From Candidatus Tenderia sp. (lineage in GTDB: Bacteria; Pseudomonadota; Gammaproteobacteria; Tenderiales; Tenderiaceae): 44,693 nt of DNA. The notes under the pieces are model-generated. The model had not been told where the DNA came from. It did not search any database and saw nothing but the letters and a program-made list of their open reading frames with translations. The stretch is taken from the NCBI GenBank assembly GCA_031416075.1, contig JANOSY010000026.1, positions 1 through 44,693 on the forward strand, written 5' to 3'. This document shows, piece by piece, positions 12,235 through 44,693 of the stretch (the first letter of the stretch is position 1; each line of letters starts with the position of its first letter). The position numbers and the translations under genes are program-made.

Positions 12235-12840
12235 TTATTTCTGATATTGCGGCGCTAATTGGGTGTAATGGTGGTGAAGTTGCTCAACCCGGTGCAGGAG
12301 CTGGTGGATGTCACCACTGTTGTTGATGACCTCATCGGCGTTAGCCAGGCGCTGTTCGCGACTCGCCTGGGCGGCAAAGGCGTTGGTGATGTCAGCATCG
12401 TTCATCTGGTCGCGCTGTTTGAGTCGCTGACGGCGAATCTCATCATCACAATCGATAACGAGAATATGGTTCACCAACGCCTGCTGCCCTGTTTCTACTA
12501 GCAGTGGAATGACAAAGATAGTGTAGGGGGTATTGAGTAGCGTGGCTTGGCGTAACATCTCGGCTCGGATGCGTGGATGGAGAATGGCCTCCAGTGCGTG
12601 GCGTTTGCTGCTGTCGGCAAAGATCAGCTGGCGCAGGGCGGGGCGATCAAGCTGGCCAGCATCAGTCACTATCTCAGCGCCAAAGGTTTGGACGATCTCA
12701 GTCAGCGCTGGTTGGCCCGGCTCCACCATCTGGCGGGCGATGAGGTCGGTATCGATAATCGGCACGCCAAGTCTGGCAAAGTGCTCTGCCGCCGCACTTT
12801 TGCCACTACCGATGCCGCCGGTAAGGCCAACGATGAGCAT
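12235..12840 (-). CDS. coaE: Dephospho-CoA kinase
   Basis: VGLTGGIGSGKS P-loop, LDRPALR, LEAILHPRIR. Confidence 0.97.
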   Translation of the reverse strand: MLIVGLTGGIGSGKSAAAEHFARLGVPIIDTDLIARQMVEPGQPALTEIVQTFGAEIVTDAGQLDRPALRQLIFADSSKRHALEAILHPRIRAEMLRQATLLNTPYTIFVIPLLVETGQQALVNHILVIDCDDEIRRQRLKQRDQMNDADITNAFAAQASREQRLANADEVINNSGDIHQLLHRVEQLHHHYTQLAPQYQK

Positions 12841-12848
12841 TTAATAGA

Positions 12849-13727
12849 TCACAAACCACTCACGCTCAGATAGGCGGCGGTGATGGTCTCGCCCCAGTAG
12901 AGCGCAATCAGGCCGGCAATTGCGAGATAGGGGCCAAAGGGGATGGGGATGTTGTGGTCACGGCCACGCAGCAGGATCAGGCTAATACCAATTACCGCGC
13001 CGACCAGGGAGGAGAGCAGGATAACAAGTGGTAACATCTGCCACCCCATCCAGGCCCCCAGCAGGGCCAGCAGTTTGAAATCGCCATACCCCATCCCCTC
13101 CTTGCCGGTGACCAGCTTAAAGCCCCAATAGACCGACCAGAGTGCAAGGTAGCCAGCAATAGCGCCGACCACGGCGCTGTTGATGTCGGTAACGGTGCCA
13201 GACAGGTTGAGTGCCAGTCCCACCCATAGAAAAGGGAGGGTAATGCTGTCGGGCAGTAGCTGGTGGTCCAGATCGATGACTGTCAGCGAGATCAGCACCC
13301 AGGTGAGCACTATAGCGGCGGCGCTCTCCCAGCCAAACCCAAAGTGCCATGCCGCAAATCCAGAGAGGAGCGCAGTGACCGTCTCGATGATGGGGTAGCG
13401 GAGTGAAATATGTACGCCACAGCCGGAACATTTGCCCCGCAGCATCAGGTAACTGATGACGGGGATATTCTCCCATGGACGGATCTTATGGCCACAGTGG
13501 GGACAGCTGGAGCCGGGCTTGGCGAGGTTGTAGGGTGTTCCCCCGCCCGGTTCTGTTGCCAGGGTTGGGGGGCTGATCTCGATACACTGTTGTCGCCACT
13601 GCCGCTCCATCATGATCGGCAGGCGGTGAATCACCACGTTGAGAAAGCTGCCTACCAGCGCCCCCAGCAGTGTGATGCAGGTGATAAAAAAGGTGGGGCT
13701 CTGTTCAAAGTAACCGGCAAGTGTCAT
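12849..13727 (-). CDS. pilD: Prepilin peptidase/N-methyltransferase
   Basis: GSFLNVVIHRLP, CPHC/CSGC zinc sites, IDLDHQLLPD, GMGYGDFKL, PFGPYL; start at ATG 13727. Confidence 0.97.
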   Translation of the reverse strand: MTLAGYFEQSPTFFITCITLLGALVGSFLNVVIHRLPIMMERQWRQQCIEISPPTLATEPGGGTPYNLAKPGSSCPHCGHKIRPWENIPVISYLMLRGKCSGCGVHISLRYPIIETVTALLSGFAAWHFGFGWESAAAIVLTWVLISLTVIDLDHQLLPDSITLPFLWVGLALNLSGTVTDINSAVVGAIAGYLALWSVYWGFKLVTGKEGMGYGDFKLLALLGAWMGWQMLPLVILLSSLVGAVIGISLILLRGRDHNIPIPFGPYLAIAGLIALYWGETITAAYLSVSGL

Positions 13728-35067: not shown

Positions 35068-35613
35068 AACCAATGCGATGTTTTTAACGTAGTTGCGGAC
35101 AAGCGATATTTTTCGAAACATAGTGACCGCCACAAATGTAGCGGTGGCTTTTGTTATGACTCCGCGATAGGTAGCTATTGACCCCGACAAATAAAGTTCG
35201 TCGATAATGTATATGATAACCCATTGATTTATCAGAACCCACTCACAGAGTGAATGTCCGTCGCAGAGCAGCCCATGCGAGAGGCGAGCATCGTAGTAAA
35301 AATTAAGTCCGTCGGATCAATTCAGCCGTGATTTGTAGTGCGGTGAGCAATCACATGTGATTGACCTAAAAATCTATCTGGATGGCCAACCGGTCGCATC
35401 CACTTAAGCGATGGATTCCAACCATGTTTTGGTATTGTTTAGTCCGCTCCCGCTGCACAGATACCATTCCCAGCGGCTAGGCTGAAGCTGGCAATGGGTC
35501 GAGACAGCCATCGGCCAGGAGCTGCCCATCAGGACAAGAGCCGTGAACGGCTGCACCAATACTGATTGCGGACATTCACATTCTGATTAGTGAGGATGAT
35601 TGTCCAGTACAGT

Positions 35614-36321
35614 TCAATCACCACAAGACGCTTTCCTCGGCCTACCCACCCCTTTCGATATAGTGCGTCGTTGGGACAGGCGCTCGATCTGTTCCTTGAA
35701 CCGTTCACTACCCAGCGCCCAGCCCTTGTGCGTACATTCCCGAATTTCTTTCAACGCGTCGTTTGAAACAGCCGCCCTGAACAATTGCCGATAGGCGCTT
35801 TGTCGGTCCGCCGCGCTCCGACCCAGGCGCTGATACTCCTTGTGGGGCGTCAGCCAATCCGCGTTCGGCCCGGTTTCGCCCTGCGCATTGAAGGCGTAAC
35901 TTGACCAGGAATAGTCTCTCGGGTGCGTCACCATGCCTGCCCGCGCGGGGTTGAGTTCGATATAGCGCATCAAGGTCAGCAGGTACTGCTCGCTATCCAC
36001 CACCGTCGCGCGGTAGCGCCCTTCCCACAAGGTGCCGCTGCGCTTGTAGGTGTAGTTGAAGTACTGCACGTATTTTCTTCCCGCAGACTGGAAGACCTTG
36101 CTGATGCTGTCGTCGAATTCAGGGGTGGCCAGCAGATGAATGTGGTTGGTCATCCAGACATAGGCGTGAATGGCCAGGCCTTGCTTAAGCGCAGCATCAA
36201 CCAGCGCATCACGGAAGAACTGATAATCCGCTTCGGCGGCAAAGATCGCTTGCCGGTTGTTGCCACGCTGGATGATGTGCTGCGGCTGGCCAGGGATAAC
36301 GTAGCGAGGAAGACGGGCCAT
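35614..36321 (-). CDS. REP-associated tyrosine transposase (RAYT, HUH Y1 family), apparently intact
   Basis: MARLPR..HIIQRGNNR, MTNHIHLL (HUH), GTLWEGRY, RYIELNP (catalytic Tyr), WSSY. Confidence 0.92.
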   Translation of the reverse strand: MARLPRYVIPGQPQHIIQRGNNRQAIFAAEADYQFFRDALVDAALKQGLAIHAYVWMTNHIHLLATPEFDDSISKVFQSAGRKYVQYFNYTYKRSGTLWEGRYRATVVDSEQYLLTLMRYIELNPARAGMVTHPRDYSWSSYAFNAQGETGPNADWLTPHKEYQRLGRSAADRQSAYRQLFRAAVSNDALKEIRECTHKGWALGSERFKEQIERLSQRRTISKGVGRPRKASCGD

Positions 36322-36426
36322 GAGCGTTCATCCAAAATGATGTTCGAGGCCGAAGCATAGCATTAAACAATCGTGTCTGACCCCATTTCTGTGACCCCAT
36401 TTCTGGTCATGACCCATTTCTGGTCA

Positions 36427-36525
36427 ATAATCCGCTTCGGCGGCAAAGATGGCTTGCCGGTTGTTACCCCGCTGGATGATGTGCTGCGGCTGGCCAGGGA
36501 TAACGTAGCGAGGAAGACGGGCCAT
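36427..36525 (-). pseudogene. RAYT 5' fragment (33 codons), near-identical to the intact copy
   Basis: Translates MARLPRYVIPGQPQHIIQRGNNRQAIFAAEADY, then a TGA created by the repeat junction. Confidence 0.88.
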
Positions 36526-36604
36526 GAGCGTTCATCCAAAATAATGTTCGAGGCCGAATCATAGTATGAAACAATCGTGTCTGACCCCATTTCTTTCCAT
36601 TTCT

Positions 36605-36901
36605 TTACAGTGTACCGGTTCGTTTGTAAGAATAATTAAAGTATTGAACATAGTAACGCCCAAGCATTTGCATCATCTTCCCGATGCCGTTTTCGGTATG
36701 GGGTGTTACCAGTAAATGCACATGATTGGTCATCAATACGTAGGCATGAATAGCGCACTGATGTTTGTTTGCGGCTTCTGCCAGTTTTTCAAGAAAAAAT
36801 GGATAATCCACTTCGGCACGAAATATCGCCTGTCGATTATTGCCGCGCTGGATAACGTGTTGCGGCTGTCCGGGGATGGCAAAGCGGGGTAATCGGGCCA
36901 T
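36605..36901 (-). pseudogene. Truncated second RAYT paralogue (98 aa)
   Basis: MARLPRFAIPG...MTNHVHLL...KRTGTL*. It stops where the intact copy continues WEGRY and lacks the catalytic Tyr. Confidence 0.9.
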
Positions 36902-37215
36902 AGGTGCTGTCTTTTTACATGAATAATGAGGTCAAGTTAACAGGGTTTGGATTGAAGATCAACGAGTCTGACCCCTTGATCTTTTGTGATCTTTTGTGAT
37001 CTTTTGTGACCCCTTGATCTTTTGCGGACTTCAGCTTTTAATGAAGCAGTCGTGGGCAAGGTAGCCCGCTCCTTGGTCTTAAGTAAGTGCCATTCGAGTC
37101 TGACCCCTTGATTCTCATGAATAATGAGGTCAAGTTAACAGGGTTTGGATTGAAAATCAACGAGTCTGACCCCTTGATTTGCCGCTTGATTTGCCTTGAT
37201 TTGATTTCTTCGGTT

Positions 37216-40200
37216 TTAAAGCGCTTCGCTTGTTGGGTCGAAAGGGACTGGACACGAGCTATTCAGTTCGTGTTCGGCCTTCATTATTCCAAACTCATTC
37301 GCGAGTAAGTCCTGTAATTGAAAAGCCCAGGGACTATCGCCTCTTATTCTCGACGGAAGGTTCCATAAGTCGATCCAAATTCCTTGTATCTCGTTAACTA
37401 TGCCGGCCCGTCGTGCCCACGTCGGGCCGTACTTTCGGGCCAGCAAATAGCTTGATTCATAATGCCGTTGGATCGAATTCTTTTCGTCCGGGTAGGTCGC
37501 GTGTCCCCACGAACGTAGTTTCTTCGACCAAGAATAAAAGTCCACCGGATGGACTATTGGGTCCCACCAATCGCCTGGTGCCAACCCATACGGGTCAATG
37601 CGTCTCAACGGATCATTGGCAACATAGGTGTAGTGATTCCCATCCCCACCCTCAAACCCAATCGGATCCTTCGCGATCCACCTTCCGGTCTCCGCGTCAT
37701 AATCCCTCGCACCAAATCGCACGAGTTGGGTATCCCGGTCATATAACCCACCCGCAAAACCAAACGGCTGGAATCCCGGATTGCTATCGCTCAACACCTG
37801 CCCGAACTCGTCGTAGTCGATGCGTTGGGCGATGGTGCCGGTCGCGACATTTATCACCAATCTCGGGCTGCCAAGTTGATCGGTAATGAGGCGGTAGGTG
37901 ACGCCGCCCTTGATCATGTAATCGGGCACGTTGATATGCGTGGCGTAGACGAAGCGGCTGACGACGGCGTTGCTACCGTCAAGCTCAGCGACCGGGCGCA
38001 GTGAGCCTTGATACAGCAAACCTTGCACCAAGGTGCCGTTGACCTTTTTGCCGATACGGCGATTGGTTCCGTCGATCAGGTAGTCGATGACGGTGCCGCT
38101 GGGCAATGTGACCTTCAGCAGATTACCGAGGGCGTCGTATTGGTAGCTCGTGGTTCCGGCACCGTTGGTTTTGCTGAGCAACTCGCCGTTGGCGGTGTAG
38201 CTGTAGGTGTTGGCACCGTAACTGCTGAGGCGGTCTTGGGCGTCGTAACTGGCGCTCACACTCGGCCCGGTGCGGGCGGTGCGGTTACCGTTGCTGTCGT
38301 AGCTGTAGCTGCTGAGAGGGCTGCCGTTTTTGGTGACGGCGCTCAGGCGGCTGGCGCTGTCGTAGCTGTAGCCGTAGGTGGTGGTGGTGCCGCCGAGGGT
38401 TTCGACTTTTTGCGTGATGCGGCCGAGTTTGTCCTGGCTGTAGGCGGTGCTGTAGATGCCGGTGGATGTGTAGTTCGCGCTGTAGTGGGTCAATTCAGCC
38501 AGTGTGTTGTAGGTCAGGCTGTCGGTGAGACTCCCCAGAGTACTGCCGGTACGCAGGCCGTTCTGCGTGTTGTGGGTCAGGGCGAGACTACCTGCTGTTT
38601 TCAGCAGGCCATCGGCGTCGTAGCTGTAGCTCACGCTGGATGGAGAATTGGCTGCGTTAACGGTTTCTGCGGTCACGCGCAGGTCGTTGTTATAAGTGTA
38701 GGCGGTGCTGCCTGCCACCGCGCCGCTCCAGGTGATGCCTTTGAGCAGATCGCCATCGTAGCTGTAACTCAAGCCGAGTCCGCCCGGCGCGGCGATGCCG
38801 GTTAATTTGCTGGTGGTCGCGTCGTAGCTGAAATTGATGCTGGAATTGATTGGGGCACGGGCGATGGTAAGTGAAGTCGCGCGCCCGGCAGTGTCGTAGC
38901 TGACGTCGATGCGCTGGCCATCGGGGCGGGTCTGGCGCGTCAGTGCGCGGTCGGTGTTGTAGCTGTATTGCGTGGCGGTGCTGCCGCTGCCGACATCGGG
39001 CGGCGTGTAGCTCGCGGTCTGGTCTATCGGCGTGTAGCCAAAACTATGCGCGGTGCGACCGGGCGGCGTGATCGCCGTGGTGTTGCCTGCGGCATCGTAA
39101 GCGAATTTTACCGTGCGGCCGTCCGGCAGGGTCTGGGTGACTAAACGTCCGGCGCTGTCGTAGGCCAGGCCCAGCGTACGGGCCAGCGGATCGGTGAGGC
39201 CGGTGAGTTCAAACGCCGCGTTGTAGGCGAGGCTGGTGGTGCGGCTGGTCGCATCGCTGCCTTCGGTAATGGTGCTGAGCAAGCCACGACTGTCGTAAGA
39301 GTAACTGACCGGCTCGAGCCCCAATGCTTGCGCCTGGGTGGTGCGCCCCAGCGCATCCAGCGTTACGGTGCTGCTGCGGCCGACGGCCGTGGTGGTGGTG
39401 AGTGTGCGCGTGGCGGCATTGTTATACACGCGGGTGCTCACCACGCCGTTGTCGGTGACGGTGTCGGTGAGTTTGGTCAGGCTCAACGCGTTAGTGGGGT
39501 CGGCAAGTGTAACCGTGCGCGTGGTGGTGACGGTGCGCGTGAGCCCCGCAGGAGTTTTGACGATCACCTTGCTGGCGATGGGCGCCAACATGCCGAAGCG
39601 CGGATCGGGGCCGTAGGTGACGGTGGTGCTGCTACCGTCGGCATAGGTGGTCTGCTTGCTGCCGTCGCTGTTGTGCAGCGTGACGGTTTTGACGCCGCTC
39701 GCGCCAGTGATGGTGCGGCGTTGCGCGCCGGTGGGCAATTGCTCCACTTGGTAGATATGGCTGCGGCCCAGCGCCGAAGTGGTGGTGACGCTGTAGCCGT
39801 TGCTTTGCTGCGTGCGAACGAGCGTGGTGCTGCCGCCGACCGGATCTTCATCTTTGAGCAAACGACCCAACGCATCATAGGTAAAGGTGTGAATATCGCC
39901 GCGCGGGCCGGTGAAGGTTTGCAACAAGCCGTCGGGCGAATAACTCATGGTGTGAGCTTCGCTGGCAGGATTGGTTGCGCTTAGTAACCAACCGTCAGCG
40001 CCGACATTCAGCGTGGTGCGCTGACCGCCGGGGGCGACGATGGCGGTGGCGATTGCACCGCTACGTTCGACGGTAGTGACGTTGCCGCTGGCATCGGTGA
40101 CGGAGATCAGGTAACCGTCGCTGCTGTAGCCAAATTGGTAAATTAACGCTCCGGTGAGGGCGTCGAGGGTTTTCAGGTGGCGGCCACTGCCGGTGAAGAG

Positions 40201-43200
40201 GTAGAGTTCGCTGCCGTCTTCGGAGGGGAGCAGGCTGTCTGAAGCAGAAATGCCCGGCAGAACGGATTGCACGCGGTGGACGCGGTGGTTGCCTTGGCCC
40301 GAGATAAACAGGCTGCCGTCCAATCCCACGGCAATACTCCAGGGGTAATGGAGTTGCGCTGCCGTTGCCGGGCCGCCGACACCGCTGAAGCCAGCTACTC
40401 CAGTGCCCGCCACAGTGGTGGTGATGCCTTCCGGGCTGACGTGACGGATGCGATGATTGCCATATTCAGCGATAAATAGACTACCGTTCGACCCCACGGC
40501 AACACCCCAAGGGTAAAACAGTTGCGCTGCCGTTGCCGGGCCGCCGTCACCGTTGAAGCCAGGTGCACCGGTGCCCGCCACGGTGGTGATGACGCCATCC
40601 GGTCCGACACGACGGATGCGGTTAGAGAGATATTCGGCGATGAACAGCGCACCATCCGATCCCACGGCAACATCAATGGGGAAATATAGTTGCGCTACCG
40701 TTGCCGATCCACCGTCACCGCTGAACCCAGGCGCACCGGAACCCACCACGGTGGTGATGATGCCATCCGGCCCGACGCGACGAATGCGGTGATTGTACAA
40801 GTCGGCGATAAACAGGCTGCCGTCTGGCCCCACGGCAATGCCAAAAAAGAGATTGAGTTGCGCTGCGGTTGCCGGGCCACCATCGCCTCTGAAACCAGGG
40901 ACACCGGTACCCACCACGGTGGTGATTATGCCATCCGGCCCAACGCGACGGATGCGGTAATTGCCATAGTCGGCGATAAACAGACTGCCATCCGGCCCCA
41001 CGGCAACAGCCGTAGGGGCATTCAGTCGCGCTGTGATTGCCGGTCCGCCGTCGCCGCTGAAACCAGGCACACCCGTACCTGCCACGGTGGTAATGATGCC
41101 ATCTGGCCCAACACGACGAATGCGGTGATTGCCATGGTCAGCGATAAACAGGCTACCGTCCGATCCCACTGCGACACGATGAGGCGAATTCAATTGCGCT
41201 GCGGTTGCCGATCCGCCGTCGCCGCTGAAACCAGCCACACCGTTACCCGCCACGTTGGTAATGGTGTTCGCTGTCATAGCTTCGGCACGGCGCTGTCCAC
41301 CTTCGCCGAGCAATAGTATGCGCGACACAGGGTCGTAGGCATGTTGAATGCCCAGACTCCAGCCCCCCAGCCCGTAAGCGCGGGCGTCCGGTGCAGCCAC
41401 CGACTCGGTCCAATTTCTGGAGAGTGCGATGGTGCTCGCCCCACGCGAAGCCGTGACCGCCACCCCGGCCGCTTCAGCCCGCGCGAAGCTGTTCTCAAAA
41501 TCGCTAGGCACGGCGTAGTACTGCGGCACATAGTCATAATGCACGCGCACGCTCGCGGTTTGCGTGCCTTGCAGCCCGCGACCGTAGGCATCCTTACCAT
41601 CCCACGCTACGGTGTAGCTGAGATTCTGTGCGGGCGTGAAAGTCTGTTGATACAAGCGCCCGGCAAGACTGACCTCGACGCGGATCGCTTTCAGGGTCGC
41701 TGGTAGTGGTGTCGCATCACTCACTTTAAAACTCATGGTGTTGGCCACCTTGCGGCCGGGCGTGCGTTCGCTCTGGTAGTGCAGTCGCCACGGCGTGCCA
41801 TTGACCGGCACCGATTCACCCAGCGTCTGATCTTCGCAGCCGATGACTGAACCGCATATTTTGCTCGCCCCGCCTAGCAAATTCTTGAGCCATTCCCAAA
41901 TTTGCTCCCAAAATGGAGGGATCGCATCCGTCGGCGGGCCGTAGGGCCAGTTGCAATCCCACGGTGTAAAGTGTGTCATCGGCACACGCCATAGCGTTTG
42001 ACCGGCCGTGTAAAGCAGTGCGAGGCGCGAGCGTTCTTCATTCGTGACACCCAGCGCGGTAAGGGCGGCGGCATTGGCGGCGATGCCGCTGCCGGTGATG
42101 TCAAGATCGGCCATGCCGCTGGTGATGCTGAGCACCTTGATGACGCGACCATTCTTTGAGGCAATCCACTGCCCCTTCTGTCGATCGTAGTAACCGGTGG
42201 GTACCGCACCGCCGACGGGGAAGCCGAGGAAGTTTTCAACGTATACGGGCAAAGCTTGACTGAAGCGCACTTCCGTCGCACCGGCGGCGATGGCTTCGTC
42301 GACGCTGAATTCAGCCGCGTAGGTGTAGCCGCTGCTGGGCGGTAACGGCGCGGGCATGGCCTTGGGGCCGGCATCGCCGACGGTGTATTCGGTGGCGCGT
42401 ACGTTGAGCGTGGTCAACGACTGGGTGGTGCCGTTGGGCAGTACCATGGTAGCGGTTGTGCCCGCTGGAAAGAGGATGGTGGCGCGGCGCGCGCCGTCGG
42501 CATCGCTCACTGGATTGCCGCGCGCGACTTGTATCGATGTGGAGGCCGCGAGGTTGACTGTGGTGACGGCAGTGTCAAGCGGGATCATCACGATTTCAGG
42601 CAGCCAGGCGTAGTCGCGCCACGGGGCAATGACATTGCGCTGAACGGCGAGCAAGCCCTCTTTTTCATAACGCACGGTGAGTTGGCCGCCGCCGTTGACG
42701 GCGAGGTCGAACAGGCCATCCGCGCGGGTGAGGGTTTGGCCGAACTCGGGATGGCCGAGCACAGTGATTTTGACTGCGCTTAGTGCGCTGCCGTTACGGC
42801 CCGTCACTTTGCCGCGCAGCACAGCGACGCGTTTGAGTTCAAGGGTGCCGGGCGCAACGCCGGTTTGAATCGGATTGGCGCCGGTATAGAGGAAGGCGGT
42901 GGTGGCGAGGATGTCGGCGGCCACGGTGCGGTCTACCGGCGGGGCGACAGTTTCAGGATTGGGCGGCAGGCCCGTGCCAGGCGGCAGGTTGGTCACGCAG
43001 TTGACCGCTACGTTTGTGACATTGGCGCCACTGAGTGTGCCAGATCCGTTAGTAACAGTGCAGGTCTGTCCGGTGGGTTGCGTGGCGACCGCAACGGCGT
43101 AGGCAGTACCGTTGGTTAGCGCTGTGGCGAAAGTGAAGCTGCCGCTTGTGGTACGTGTAAGGCTGTTGCTGCCGTTATTTTGCAGTACCAGCGTTCCAGA

Positions 43201-44693
43201 GAGGCCGCTAATGGTGCCGCCGACGGTGTAGGTGGCAATCACATTGTCGGCAATGGTCACCGTGGTGCTGCTGGGCGTGCCAATGGTGTAGGCGGCATTG
43301 GCAGCGAGGGTGAGCACCACGGTTTCACTGCCTTCGACGAGGTTGTCGGCCAGCGGGGTGATTGTTACCGCGACGCTGGACTGGTTGGCGGGAATAGTGA
43401 CGGTGGTGCCGATGTTGGTGTAGTCGACGCCATTGGTGGCGCTGCCGCTGATGGTGACACGTACATTCAACGGTTGATTGAGTGTGCCTCCGCTACGGGT
43501 GAGGGTGAAGGTGCCACTGTTTGGGCCTGCCTCTGAAGCGTTGGCGTCAGAGGTGGTGATTGCAATAACAGGCACCGGTGCGGCCACGGTGATTGCCACG
43601 GTGTCTGGTGCGCTGTTGAGCTTGCTGTCGTTAACAATCAGCCGGACGGTGTAGGTGCCAGCAACGTCCGGTGTGAAGGCAGGATTGACCGCCGTTGCAT
43701 TGGTTAACGTTGCTGTGCTGCCCGCCGGGCGTGAGGCGAAACTCCACTGGTAGGTGATCGTATCGCCATCCAGATCTTTAGATGCGGAGCCATTGAGCGC
43801 GACGGCTGTGCCGACAGTGCCTGTTCGGTCGGTGCCGGCATTGGCCGTGGGTGCGTCATTTAAGGCGGCAACATGGATGGTGACGGTGGTGGCATTACTG
43901 TTGTCCTTGCCATCATTGGCGCGGTAGCTGAAGGTTGCGTTGCCGTTGAAGTTGGCGGGAGGGGTGTAGGTGAATGTCCCGTTGGTATTGAGTGACAATA
44001 ACCCTGTTGAAACGTTGGTTGCCAGTTGTGCGGTGAGTGGATCACCATCGGCATCGGTATCGTTTGTGAGCACACTGGTACCGATGAGTGTTCCATCTTC
44101 GCTCATGTTGTATGTGTCGGGGTTGGCGACAGGCACTTTGTTGGGTACGGGTGTTGCGCTAACCACCACGGTGTCGGGCGGACTGTCCGCCGCGCCGTCA
44201 TTGACGATGAGCTGGAGGATGTAATCTCCGGCTTTGGTCGCGGTGAATGAGGGTTGGGACGAGGTGGGATTAGTGAGTACAGGTACACTGCCGCCTGTTG
44301 GTACAGAGGTGAACGTCCATCTATAAGATAGTGTGTTGCCATCTGCATCCGTAGACGCACGGCCATTGAGTGTGACGATTGTGCCGACAGTCATACTTTG
44401 ATCCTGACCGGCATTGGCTACTGGCGCAGTATTGAAGGTGGTGATGATCACTGTGTCTGCGACACTGTTGAGAGCGCCATCGTTGACGATAAGCTGGAGA
44501 ATATTGGTACCAATACGATCTACAACAAATACCGGATTGGCGATGTTGTTTGCAGAGAGGACTGCGTTACTGCCGACAGGACGCGATACAAAGGACCACA
44601 AATAGCTTAAGGGTGCGCCTTCGGGGTCGGACGAGGCAGAACCGTTCAATTGCACCATGCCACCCAGTGCAACATTTTGATCCGCACCGGCAT
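37216..44693 (-). CDS. Giant teneurin-like Rhs/YD-repeat protein, 5' partial
   Basis: The frame stays open to the window edge (..AGADQNVALGGMVQLNG). It has PKD-like repeats (ANAG.D), a cadherin/Big_9-like repeat, a Calx-beta-like domain, a carboxypeptidase-regulatory-like fold, six NHL repeats, YD repeats, the Rhs core PFGFAGGLYD...RDYD...DPIG...DPYGL and a 121-aa tip. Confidence 0.93.
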   Translation of the reverse strand, partial: AGADQNVALGGMVQLNGSASSDPEGAPLSYLWSFVSRPVGSNAVLSANNIANPVFVVDRIGTNILQLIVNDGALNSVADTVIITTFNTAPVANAGQDQSMTVGTIVTLNGRASTDADGNTLSYRWTFTSVPTGGSVPVLTNPTSSQPSFTATKAGDYILQLIVNDGAADSPPDTVVVSATPVPNKVPVANPDTYNMSEDGTLIGTSVLTNDTDADGDPLTAQLATNVSTGLLSLNTNGTFTYTPPANFNGNATFSYRANDGKDNSNATTVTIHVAALNDAPTANAGTDRTGTVGTAVALNGSASKDLDGDTITYQWSFASRPAGSTATLTNATAVNPAFTPDVAGTYTVRLIVNDSKLNSAPDTVAITVAAPVPVIAITTSDANASEAGPNSGTFTLTRSGGTLNQPLNVRVTISGSATNGVDYTNIGTTVTIPANQSSVAVTITPLADNLVEGSETVVLTLAANAAYTIGTPSSTTVTIADNVIATYTVGGTISGLSGTLVLQNNGSNSLTRTTSGSFTFATALTNGTAYAVAVATQPTGQTCTVTNGSGTLSGANVTNVAVNCVTNLPPGTGLPPNPETVAPPVDRTVAADILATTAFLYTGANPIQTGVAPGTLELKRVAVLRGKVTGRNGSALSAVKITVLGHPEFGQTLTRADGLFDLAVNGGGQLTVRYEKEGLLAVQRNVIAPWRDYAWLPEIVMIPLDTAVTTVNLAASTSIQVARGNPVSDADGARRATILFPAGTTATMVLPNGTTQSLTTLNVRATEYTVGDAGPKAMPAPLPPSSGYTYAAEFSVDEAIAAGATEVRFSQALPVYVENFLGFPVGGAVPTGYYDRQKGQWIASKNGRVIKVLSITSGMADLDITGSGIAANAAALTALGVTNEERSRLALLYTAGQTLWRVPMTHFTPWDCNWPYGPPTDAIPPFWEQIWEWLKNLLGGASKICGSVIGCEDQTLGESVPVNGTPWRLHYQSERTPGRKVANTMSFKVSDATPLPATLKAIRVEVSLAGRLYQQTFTPAQNLSYTVAWDGKDAYGRGLQGTQTASVRVHYDYVPQYYAVPSDFENSFARAEAAGVAVTASRGASTIALSRNWTESVAAPDARAYGLGGWSLGIQHAYDPVSRILLLGEGGQRRAEAMTANTITNVAGNGVAGFSGDGGSATAAQLNSPHRVAVGSDGSLFIADHGNHRIRRVGPDGIITTVAGTGVPGFSGDGGPAITARLNAPTAVAVGPDGSLFIADYGNYRIRRVGPDGIITTVVGTGVPGFRGDGGPATAAQLNLFFGIAVGPDGSLFIADLYNHRIRRVGPDGIITTVVGSGAPGFSGDGGSATVAQLYFPIDVAVGSDGALFIAEYLSNRIRRVGPDGVITTVAGTGAPGFNGDGGPATAAQLFYPWGVAVGSNGSLFIAEYGNHRIRHVSPEGITTTVAGTGVAGFSGVGGPATAAQLHYPWSIAVGLDGSLFISGQGNHRVHRVQSVLPGISASDSLLPSEDGSELYLFTGSGRHLKTLDALTGALIYQFGYSSDGYLISVTDASGNVTTVERSGAIATAIVAPGGQRTTLNVGADGWLLSATNPASEAHTMSYSPDGLLQTFTGPRGDIHTFTYDALGRLLKDEDPVGGSTTLVRTQQSNGYSVTTTSALGRSHIYQVEQLPTGAQRRTITGASGVKTVTLHNSDGSKQTTYADGSSTTVTYGPDPRFGMLAPIASKVIVKTPAGLTRTVTTTRTVTLADPTNALSLTKLTDTVTDNGVVSTRVYNNAATRTLTTTTAVGRSSTVTLDALGRTTQAQALGLEPVSYSYDSRGLLSTITEGSDATSRTTSLAYNAAFELTGLTDPLARTLGLAYDSAGRLVTQTLPDGRTVKFAYDAAGNTTAITPPGRTAHSFGYTPIDQTASYTPPDVGSGSTATQYSYNTDRALTRQTRPDGQRIDVSYDTAGRATSLTIARAPINSSINFSYDATTSKLTGIAAPGGLGLSYSYDGDLLKGITWSGAVAGSTAYTYNNDLRVTAETVNAANSPSSVSYSYDADGLLKTAGSLALTHNTQNGLRTGSTLGSLTDSLTYNTLAELTHYSANYTSTGIYSTAYSQDKLGRITQKVETLGGTTTTYGYSYDSASRLSAVTKNGSPLSSYSYDSNGNRTARTGPSVSASYDAQDRLSSYGANTYSYTANGELLSKTNGAGTTSYQYDALGNLLKVTLPSGTVIDYLIDGTNRRIGKKVNGTLVQGLLYQGSLRPVAELDGSNAVVSRFVYATHINVPDYMIKGGVTYRLITDQLGSPRLVINVATGTIAQRIDYDEFGQVLSDSNPGFQPFGFAGGLYDRDTQLVRFGARDYDAETGRWIAKDPIGFEGGDGNHYTYVANDPLRRIDPYGLAPGDWWDPIVHPVDFYSWSKKLRSWGHATYPDEKNSIQRHYESSYLLARKYGPTWARRAGIVNEIQGIWIDLWNLPSRIRGDSPWAFQLQDLLANEFGIMKAEHELNSSCPVPFDPTSEAL
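40265..41270 (-). repeat. Six intragenic NHL repeats (about 168 bp each)
   Basis: Repeated GIITTVAGTG.PGFSGDGGPATAAQL..P..VAVG.DGSLFIAD..NHRIRRV unit. Confidence 0.9.

Follow-up and report, generated by a model that had tools for sequence, protein, structure and literature searches.

Nested TIRtron left ends behind an Rhs gene in Candidatus Tenderia

What could stack truncated transposase leaders and gene stumps directly behind a putative toxin gene? The question is raised by a contig of Candidatus Tenderia sp. (JANOSY010000026.1, assembly GCA_031416075.1; contig C26 of the genome labelled G000 here). The window, which is the whole 44,693-nt stretch analysed, carries on its minus strand an Rhs/teneurin-like gene, then five copies of the motif GGGGTCAGAC, then an intact gene for a Y1 HUH transposase. 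A preliminary description had presented motif and enzyme as a possible HUH-driven remodelling system. The locus is a real, decayed TIRtron, a member of a family already on record (PMC3733652, PMC6006769). In the main text of Di Nocera, De Gregorio & Rocco (2013; PMC3733652), such units are named TIRtrons and their enzymes TIRYTs, and the flanking inverted repeats share GGGGWSAS. The left repeat of the window (GGGGTCAG, five copies) fits this consensus.

We hold with moderate confidence that the tract is a pile-up of TIRtron left ends, that the enzyme made the outward duplications in it and the inward deletions in related copies, and that its position reflects a recurrent preference for, or retention at, the 3' side of Rhs genes. 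Within this account, observation covers the type of element, the architecture of its hairpins, nested copies on the outer side only, terminal gene fragments that recur, and the enrichment behind Rhs.

Composition of the tract and identity of the transposase

GGGGTCAGAC occurred exactly five times in the window, each time as an exact match on the minus strand (36375-36384, 36579-36588, 36966-36975, 37098-37107 and 37164-37173), which bears out the earlier report of five same-orientation motifs between the Rhs stop and the intact RAYT (REP-associated tyrosine transposase). Shuffled sequence contained a mean of 0.06 copies, and at least five were reached in 0 of 100 shuffles. The full reading common to all five is GGGGTCAGAC[T/A]CG. 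The tract consists of the following features, all on the minus strand.

37216..44658, minus strand: Rhs/teneurin-like YD-shell protein gene, 2480 aa from the first ATG, in a frame open to the window end
37174..37215, minus strand: Stutter 1, degenerate partial copies AAATCAA / ATCAAGG / CAAATCAAGCGG / CAAATCAA
37116..37180, minus strand: Module 1, type-A hairpin of arm AAATCAA, loop GGGGTCAGACTCG and arm TTGATTT
37024..37115, minus strand: Module 2, half hairpin (arm GAATCAA and GGGGTCAGACT) broken by the IS4-like terminal inverted repeat CGAATGGCACTTACTTAAG
36976..37023, minus strand: Stutter 3, nested partial copies of arm and loop, AAAAGATCAAGGGGTCAC, AAAAGATCAC, AAAAGATCAC, AAAAGATCAA
36605..36982, minus strand: Module 3, type-A hairpin AGATCAA / GGGGTCAGACTCG / TTGATCT with its complete leader and codons 1-98 of TIRYT-A
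36589..36607, minus strand: Stutter 4, (T)AAAGAAATGG then AAAGAAAT
36424..36588, minus strand: Module 4, type-B motif with its leader and codons 1-33 of TIRYT-B
36385..36426, minus strand: Stutter 5, TGACCAGAAATGGGTCA, TGACCAGAAATGGGGTCA, CAGAAAT
35563..36384, minus strand: Module 5, type-B motif (36375-36384), 53-nt leader, intact TIRYT-B gene and about 50 nt of 3' sequence
35614-36321, minus strand: TIRYT-B transposase gene, 235 aa, with the HUH histidines H60/H62 and the tyrosine Y120 in YIELNP

Two paralogous elements, A and B, supplied the nested left-end fragments that make up modules 1 and 3-5. Element B is intact except for its right hairpin, and A is represented by a 98-codon stump and a second leader stump. 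The Rhs open reading frame (ORF) ends with TAA at 37216-37218, and Stutter 1, made of copies of the 5' hairpin arm and the first motif bases, begins 1 nt past this stop. All five motifs are preceded by such partial copies of the 5' arm and part of the motif, for example AAAAGATCAAGGGGTCAC / AAAAGATCAC / AAAAGATCAC / AAAAGATCAA-GGGGTCAGAC. Module 1 keeps 38 nt of leader past its 3' arm, where it is cut after CATTATTCATG; it is identical to Module 3 at 63 of 65 positions, and the two differences form a compensatory pair in the stem. Module 4 matches Module 5 at 155 of 162 nt, with all three coding differences synonymous. Both previously noted RAYT fragments are present: the 98-codon fragment of paralogue A (36605-36901) is 68% identical to intact TIRYT-B, and the 33-codon fragment (36424-36525) is 100% identical to it at the protein level. 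The TIRYT-A fragment retains the HUH motif, lacks the catalytic tyrosine and is cut after GTL. An inverted right-end hairpin was not found after TIRYT-B in Module 5.

In modules 1 and 3, the seven bases before the 13-nt GGGGTCAGACTCG pair with the seven after it. The hairpin AAATCAA/TTGATTT of Module 1 folded at -5.5 kcal/mol (z -2.6) and AGATCAA/TTGATCT of Module 3 at -7.3 kcal/mol (z -3.6). The motifs had been described as something other than hairpin GTAG repeats; this is right in that they have no GTAG head, and wrong for the two modules of five that are hairpins.

The transposase itself matched Pfam Y1_Tnp (PF01797, 3e-12) and aligned to Escherichia coli TnpA_REP (4ER8; E 4.4e-6), where the HUH and YI..NP motifs of the two proteins coincide. 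NHIHLL (H60, H62) and YIELNP (Y120) were invariant across 16 homologues. TIRYT-B fell below the cut-offs of both the classical RAYT model NF047646 (70.5 bits, cut-off 80) and the IS200 equivalog NF033573 (18.5 bits, cut-off 55). Its family has a conserved C-terminal extension of ~95 aa, the part that in TIRYTs carries an HTH/DnaA_C-like domain, and Pfam gave only Y1_Tnp at E ≤ 0.01. Judged by repeat motif and length, the intact gene is assigned to the class variously called TIRYT, Group 1 RAYT and TnpA-Y1 subclass 2.1. The main text of Quentin et al. (2018; PMC6006769) equates TIRYT with subclass 2.1, in which it places 291 of the 292 Group 1 RAYTs of Bertels et al. (2017; PMC5581495). The same text reports no secondary structure resembling repetitive extragenic palindromes (REPs) near subclass 2.1 genes, whereas many repeats in the family examined here are hairpins with 7-bp stems.

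Likeness to TIRtrons extends to a Y1 HUH transposase that is longer than IS200 TnpA and has a C-terminal extension, to flanking repeats with GGGG[AT][CG]A[CG], and to a low copy number, with no large genomic repeat family and a wide, patchy distribution. The window differs in presenting five left ends only, with the right repeat missing. With REPtrons (REPIN-RAYT systems such as E. coli TnpA_REP, 4ER8) the locus shares a gene set between inverted palindromic repeats and a homologous catalytic core; it differs in having no GT(A/G)G head, AT-rich rather than GC-rich stems, and 11 motif copies rather than a high copy number. IS200/IS605 TnpA proteins are shorter (~130-150 aa) and come in multiple near-identical copies, whereas TIRYT-B has 235 aa and the second copy in the genome is 94% identical.

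Genome-wide, the exact motif occurred 11 times in 3.49 Mb: five copies in the window, four in a 118-nt cluster on contig C14, and two isolated copies that are probably there by chance. TIRYT genes numbered two near-full copies and two stumps. The second near-full copy (contig C77, ~12617-13345), with the 94% identical transposase, lacks the leader and the first seven codons; codon 8 is joined directly to GGGGTC (...GAAAAATGGGGTC) after four stutter units, and this junction marks a deletion that starts at loop position 6 and extends inward. The C26 and C77 copies remain homologous until ~50 nt after the stop codon, and neither has a right-hand repeat after the stop. The C77 copy lies downstream of a gene with repeated pre-peptidase-like domains, as judged by eye. 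The C14 cluster (125993-126140) contains its four motifs amid heavy stutter (units GAATAAAT.., TAATAAAT.., AAGAAGTAAT..); it has no TIRYT-family transposase gene beside it, adjoins a copy of an IS4-like element, and is ~1 kb from the contig end, downstream of a Pro-rich, secreted-looking ORF.

Module 2 had been taken for a module with a different leader. A third kind of transposase leader was rejected, since the CGAATGGCACTTACTTAAG in it belongs to an IS4-like insertion sequence (IS) as the terminal inverted repeat, with ~54 nt of further sequence after it. In the complete genome of a relative (G010), an IS4-like element sits inside the hairpin loop, flanked by the 9-bp duplication GGTCAGTGT. 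At many further loci, CGAATGGCACTTACTTAAG adjoins the loop at the same position: besides the window (37078-37107), it was located on contigs C14 of G000 (~124500-126005), C60 (~1006-1141) and C90 (~46380), at locus L221 (8723-10262), and at L005, L014, L026, L094, L110, L151 and L155. An IS4-family element was thus repeatedly found at one fixed point of the GGGGTCAGA-type loop, and it appears to use TIRtron hairpins as a target site. Other IS elements, among them IS1397 and ISPpu10, target REP palindromes; these are alike in their fixed insertion point and differ in IS family and target repeat.

Every junction of the tract was matched with 0 mismatches by short contigs from two public runs of one study, possibly made from the source sample.

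36309-36499: public-run contig covering motif 5 and Stutter 5
36513-36641: public-run contig covering the element-A truncation point, Stutter 4 and motif 4
36927-37073: public-run contig covering Stutter 3 and motif 3
37084-37700: public-run contig covering motifs 2 and 1 and the Rhs stop

Summed contig depth in these runs over 37017-37170 was 20-30x that over the flanking Rhs gene, so that the hairpin and IS-end sequence must be very abundant in other organisms of those communities.

Repeats, stutter and gene stumps across the family

Homologues (E ≤ 1e-20) were present in 23 of 61 related genomes. Scans confirmed 611 loci in genome contigs and 601 in metagenome contigs, of which the best 80 of each were used, and architecture was counted in 94 distinct full-length genes from the first two homologue sets. 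The 5' motif core (≤2 mismatches, ≤200 nt upstream) preceded 72 of 89 homologues, typically 58-84 nt before the ATG. The inverted core stood at the stop codon in 64 of 90, and both cores were found in 52 of 85, where simple arithmetic puts the chance of a core match at roughly 8% per strand. The motif therefore does belong to the transposase class, as had been proposed. The companion idea, that it is a one-ended site, was rejected: homologues carry inverted copies at both ends, and one-endedness describes only the window, whose left ends without a right partner are a local, decayed state.

The canonical repeat is a hairpin with a 7-bp stem and a 13-nt loop. Many stems are perfect (7/7), commonly AATCAAT-GGGGTCAGACTCG-ATTGATT. 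The stop codon TGA often falls inside GTCTGACC of the right-hand repeat. At L045, L049, L052, L056, L006 and others, the transposase TGA lies within the right hairpin loop (GTCTGACCCC), so that the repeat itself supplies the final codons of the protein.

Partial copies like those in the window recurred at element ends throughout the family, and with a strict polarity. An extra outward copy of the unit [5 arm bases + GG] was present at 45 of the 134 ends that had sufficient flank and an inward one at 1 of 134, so the expected anchoring of rearrangements at the motif was borne out and proved polar as well. At least two outward copies were present at 21 of the 134 ends. Outward copies averaged 0.63 per end, against 0.009 in shuffled flanks, and the two ends behaved alike (5', 22/70; 3', 23/64). 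We parsed 100 units from 50 ends, counting L050, which has two tandem copies, twice. The commonest unit start was -7, at the outer stem foot (33 units), and unit ends peaked at +2 (21 units) and at +6 to +8 (39 units); 42 of the 100 ended at +1 to +4, inside the G-run.

Gene stumps recurred as well. Fragments of the 5' part of the gene lay upstream of full copies at L035, L040 (twice), L055, L107 and L155, fragments of the 3' part lay downstream of full copies at L083 (twice), L085 and L109, and further cases were seen at L160, L165 and L189. Stutter was also present in isolate and complete genomes (for example L095, L093 and L007) and is therefore no artefact of binning. We found no description of stutter in the literature. 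By word search, the main texts of PMC3733652 and PMC6006769 lack the terms 'truncated' and 'partial copies' and make no mention of nested partial copies, truncated gene stumps or Rhs. Polar nested copies at TIRtron ends appear to be a family-wide regularity undescribed in print.

Association with Rhs toxin genes

The Rhs protein of the window scored 120.6 bits with RHS_repeat, 124 with TEN_YD-shell and 144.7 with TEN_NHL. Its layout is a PKD/cadherin-like/Calx-beta head, TTR, FN-plug, NHL propeller and YD shell; the core terminates in DPYGL, and the 150 aa of tip beyond it match no Pfam family. The 43 nt that separate the Rhs stop from the first motif contain no immunity-like ORF, while the equivalent slot holds an ORF of ~140 aa in both the G010 orthologue and the closest metagenome relative (L111).

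To measure linkage, the window Rhs core was compared by tblastn with the flanks (806.7 kb) of 172 distinct full-length homologues outside this genome. An Rhs core was found beside 15 of them, 14 upstream and one downstream, all co-oriented with the transposase gene and none on the opposite strand. The two sides offered similar amounts of flank (≥1 kb upstream in 120 loci and downstream in 116). Chance would supply ~0.15 matches, given 30 core matches in ~165 Mb of 61 relatives (Poisson P 2e-25). Co-orientation in 15 of 15 cases also exceeds the general bias of the nearest upstream ORF (83:43). Two more Rhs-adjacent cases had incomplete transposase genes (L022 and L029). The proposed association of RAYT and Rhs across genomes stands as an enrichment. 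Most homologues (157 of the 172) had no Rhs in the flanks examined, and only one of 51 other Rhs ends had a TIRYT gene within ±1.5 kb (L200), the G010 copy falling just outside the flank. These 51 ends come from the relatives and a 200-genome sample of the class; leaving aside L222 (genome G157, no match), the count is 1 of 50. Among the other upstream neighbours (Pfam, 150 of 302 upstream ORFs) were MutS, RecA, ribonucleotide reductase, toxin-antitoxin genes, integrases and other IS elements. Under strict hairpin criteria, no solo hairpin was found within other Rhs arrays of the relatives (29 loci, 92 kb), and a looser motif scan of the 51 Rhs loci gave two candidates, L233 and L239.

In the typical linked locus, the Rhs core and tip are followed by an immunity-like ORF of 62-141 aa, and the left hairpin begins 100-700 nt further on. 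G010, which belongs to a sister genus, has an orthologous Rhs (2454 aa, core 69% identical); behind it come, in order, an immunity-like ORF, a first hairpin interrupted by the IS4-like element, another hairpin and a TIRYT gene truncated at its 3' end. Two loci have a hairpin exactly on a truncated rhs gene. At L169, rhs stops eight codons past DPLGL, directly at the hairpin, and the tip is gone; at L157, an rhs core lacking its 5' part begins immediately after the right hairpin and resembles an orphan module. In E. coli, an ISAs1-family IS with a DDE transposase, the H-repeat, habitually lies downstream of the toxin-immunity modules of Rhs elements; it resembles TIRtrons in its position beyond the module, and its transposase is unrelated to TIRYT.

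Descent from a single Rhs-TIRYT lineage was rejected. On the protein tree (FastTree), the Rhs-adjacent genes required 12 changes for 16 labelled rows, where label shuffles required 13-16 (0 of 1000 at ≤12), so their clustering is only mild. A shared, travelling toxin-immunity cassette was likewise rejected, since all-against-all tblastx of the 15 segments gave a single weak match, from an IS. Scattered tree positions together with unrelated toxin-immunity segments imply that the association arose many times without a common cassette. A circle-integration model, in which an orphan rhs core fragment should directly follow the element, was matched only by L157; no such fragment was seen in the eight linked loci with ≥2 kb downstream. 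We found no description of the Rhs-TIRYT link in the literature, and a word search of Zhang et al. (2012) found none there. TIRtrons thus appear to have repeatedly evolved a strong tendency to sit just behind Rhs toxin-immunity modules, a tendency undescribed in print.

Two homologues adjoin genes of other kinds. At L127, the transposase gene starts (2318) 43 nt after a 758-aa ORF with filamentous-haemagglutinin repeats (2-2275), and at L068 it follows a 666-aa ORF containing DUF6862 (1002-2999). The link may extend to other polymorphic-toxin types, these being candidate cases from half of the neighbour ORFs.

How the tract may have formed

If the TIRtron enzyme itself produced the tract, it would nick single-stranded DNA at its own hairpin, with the outer stem foot and loop positions 6-8 as the favoured points suggested by the sequence. 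The 5'-tyrosine-linked end would occasionally be rejoined to a different nearby 3'-OH, for instance on the nascent or sister strand. Rejoining to a 3'-OH further inside that strand would give a direct duplication from the foot to a variable inner point; short duplications would be stutter units and long ones would be leaders with gene stumps. A reciprocal or loop-anchored event could give inward deletions, as in the C77 copy and at L015. The position behind Rhs would reflect recurrent preference for, or retention of, TIRtrons 3' of Rhs toxin-immunity modules. IS91, ISCR elements and Helitrons likewise combine an HUH enzyme fixed at one end with a variable other end and with truncated or over-long adjacent copies. 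Their enzymes are larger, of Rep type, mostly with two tyrosines, and their ends are a defined ori and ter, in contrast to the 235-aa Y1 enzyme and inverted hairpins found here. For RAYTs, a passage in Nunvar et al. (2010; PMC2817692) proposes that nicks beside flanking repeats could prime replication into the gene.

Several observations weigh against this account. The cut points at -7 and at +6 to +8 are read from sequence, and +2 is as frequent an end as +7. Modules 2, 4 and 5 folded no better than shuffles, which leaves the type-B hairpins unconvincing. Module 4 departs from Module 5 at 7 of 162 nt with its three coding changes all synonymous, which fits a separate, once-functional donor better than a recent local duplication. 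Codons 99 onward of element A were found nowhere in the genome, which calls for one or more ordinary deletions or replacements in addition. No single contig of the two public runs spans the whole tract, these contigs being short and unable to show heterogeneity of junctions. The main texts of Di Nocera 2013, Quentin 2018 and Bertels 2017 contain no test that we could find of the cleavage points, DNA site or biological activity of any TIRYT or Group 1 RAYT.

Some of these points favour serial targeted insertion, a serious rival that we nonetheless consider unlikely. Each module would then be the remnant of a separate TIRtron that entered, or landed next to, a resident hairpin or leader; the enzyme would only insert, and the 3' parts so displaced would later have been lost to ordinary recombination. 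A and B, which are distinct paralogues, do stand at one site. The synonymous-only coding differences between modules 4 and 5 and the compensatory pair between modules 1 and 3 suggest independent donors, and the unrelated IS that hits the same loop marks the hairpin as a target site. The displaced 3' halves, however, are absent here, at L040 and at L083-type loci, where the fragments are one-sided. Units of 9-20 nt are hard to read as insertions of whole elements, and the outward polarity is identical at both ends.

A dedicated function, in which this transposase class remodels, prunes or swaps Rhs toxin-immunity tails through the motif, is possible and in our judgement improbable. The 15 co-oriented neighbours among 172 homologues, 14 of them upstream, speak for it, as do at least 12 separate origins on the protein tree, the lost tip at L169, the hairpin on truncated rhs at L157, the element beside the orthologous Rhs of G010 and the lack of an immunity ORF in the window. 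Against it are the 157 homologues with varied neighbours and no Rhs, the single TIRYT gene near 51 other Rhs ends, and linked toxin-immunity segments that are unrelated, with no shared cassette seen to travel and no orphan core fragment in the eight loci with sufficient downstream sequence. The H-repeat, an unrelated IS, likewise accumulates at Rhs loci of E. coli. The suggestion that the system diversifies or prunes toxin tails is not supported, as nothing shows diversification. Of the HUH-driven remodelling first proposed, the motif's link to this transposase class, the polar changes anchored at it and the association with Rhs are supported.

Slippage independent of the enzyme is more doubtful again, and we rank it below serial insertion because the effect is strictly outward. 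Under this explanation the hairpin would stall replication, polymerase template switching would make the partial copies and deletions, and the transposase would be a bystander. Short AT-rich stems next to a G-run are classic slippage substrates, many units end in that G-run (42/100), and the stutter units are brief and nearly identical to one another. Forks arriving from either side should be stalled by a symmetric hairpin, yet copies were outward at 45 of 134 ends and inward at 1. Unit starts cluster at the stem foot, stumps of hundreds of nt start at the same point, and weakly folding type-B motifs stutter too.

An assembly artefact of the metagenome bin is very improbable: the genome is in 95 contigs, the related loci on C14 and C77 lie near contig ends and such repeats break assemblies, but independent short contigs of two runs, possibly of the same sample, match the junctions with 0 mismatches, and the same architecture occurs in complete and isolate genomes.

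Enzyme-made outward duplication at the ends of a TIRtron, with inward deletion as the reciprocal event, remains the reading that we prefer for the tract. A further step, which we offer tentatively and regard as unlikely, would make TIRtrons habitual partners of Rhs genes; nicking at the TIRtron hairpins and one-ended excision of the element together with upstream DNA would then set the abrupt boundaries of truncated and orphan rhs modules and could move toxin-immunity tails from one Rhs gene to another. If the link is mere tolerance of insertions behind Rhs, the locus is an ordinary graveyard of decayed mobile elements. If the partnership is true, stutter and stumps together would record, in legible form, where the HUH enzyme cuts and rejoins in vivo. 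The outward nested copies predict which strand is cut, where it is cut (at the stem foot and loop positions 6-8), and that the held end is joined to foreign 3' ends. Enrichment behind Rhs, together with two hairpins exactly on truncated rhs, would make TIRtrons a candidate source of the sharp boundaries of some Rhs tails and orphans.

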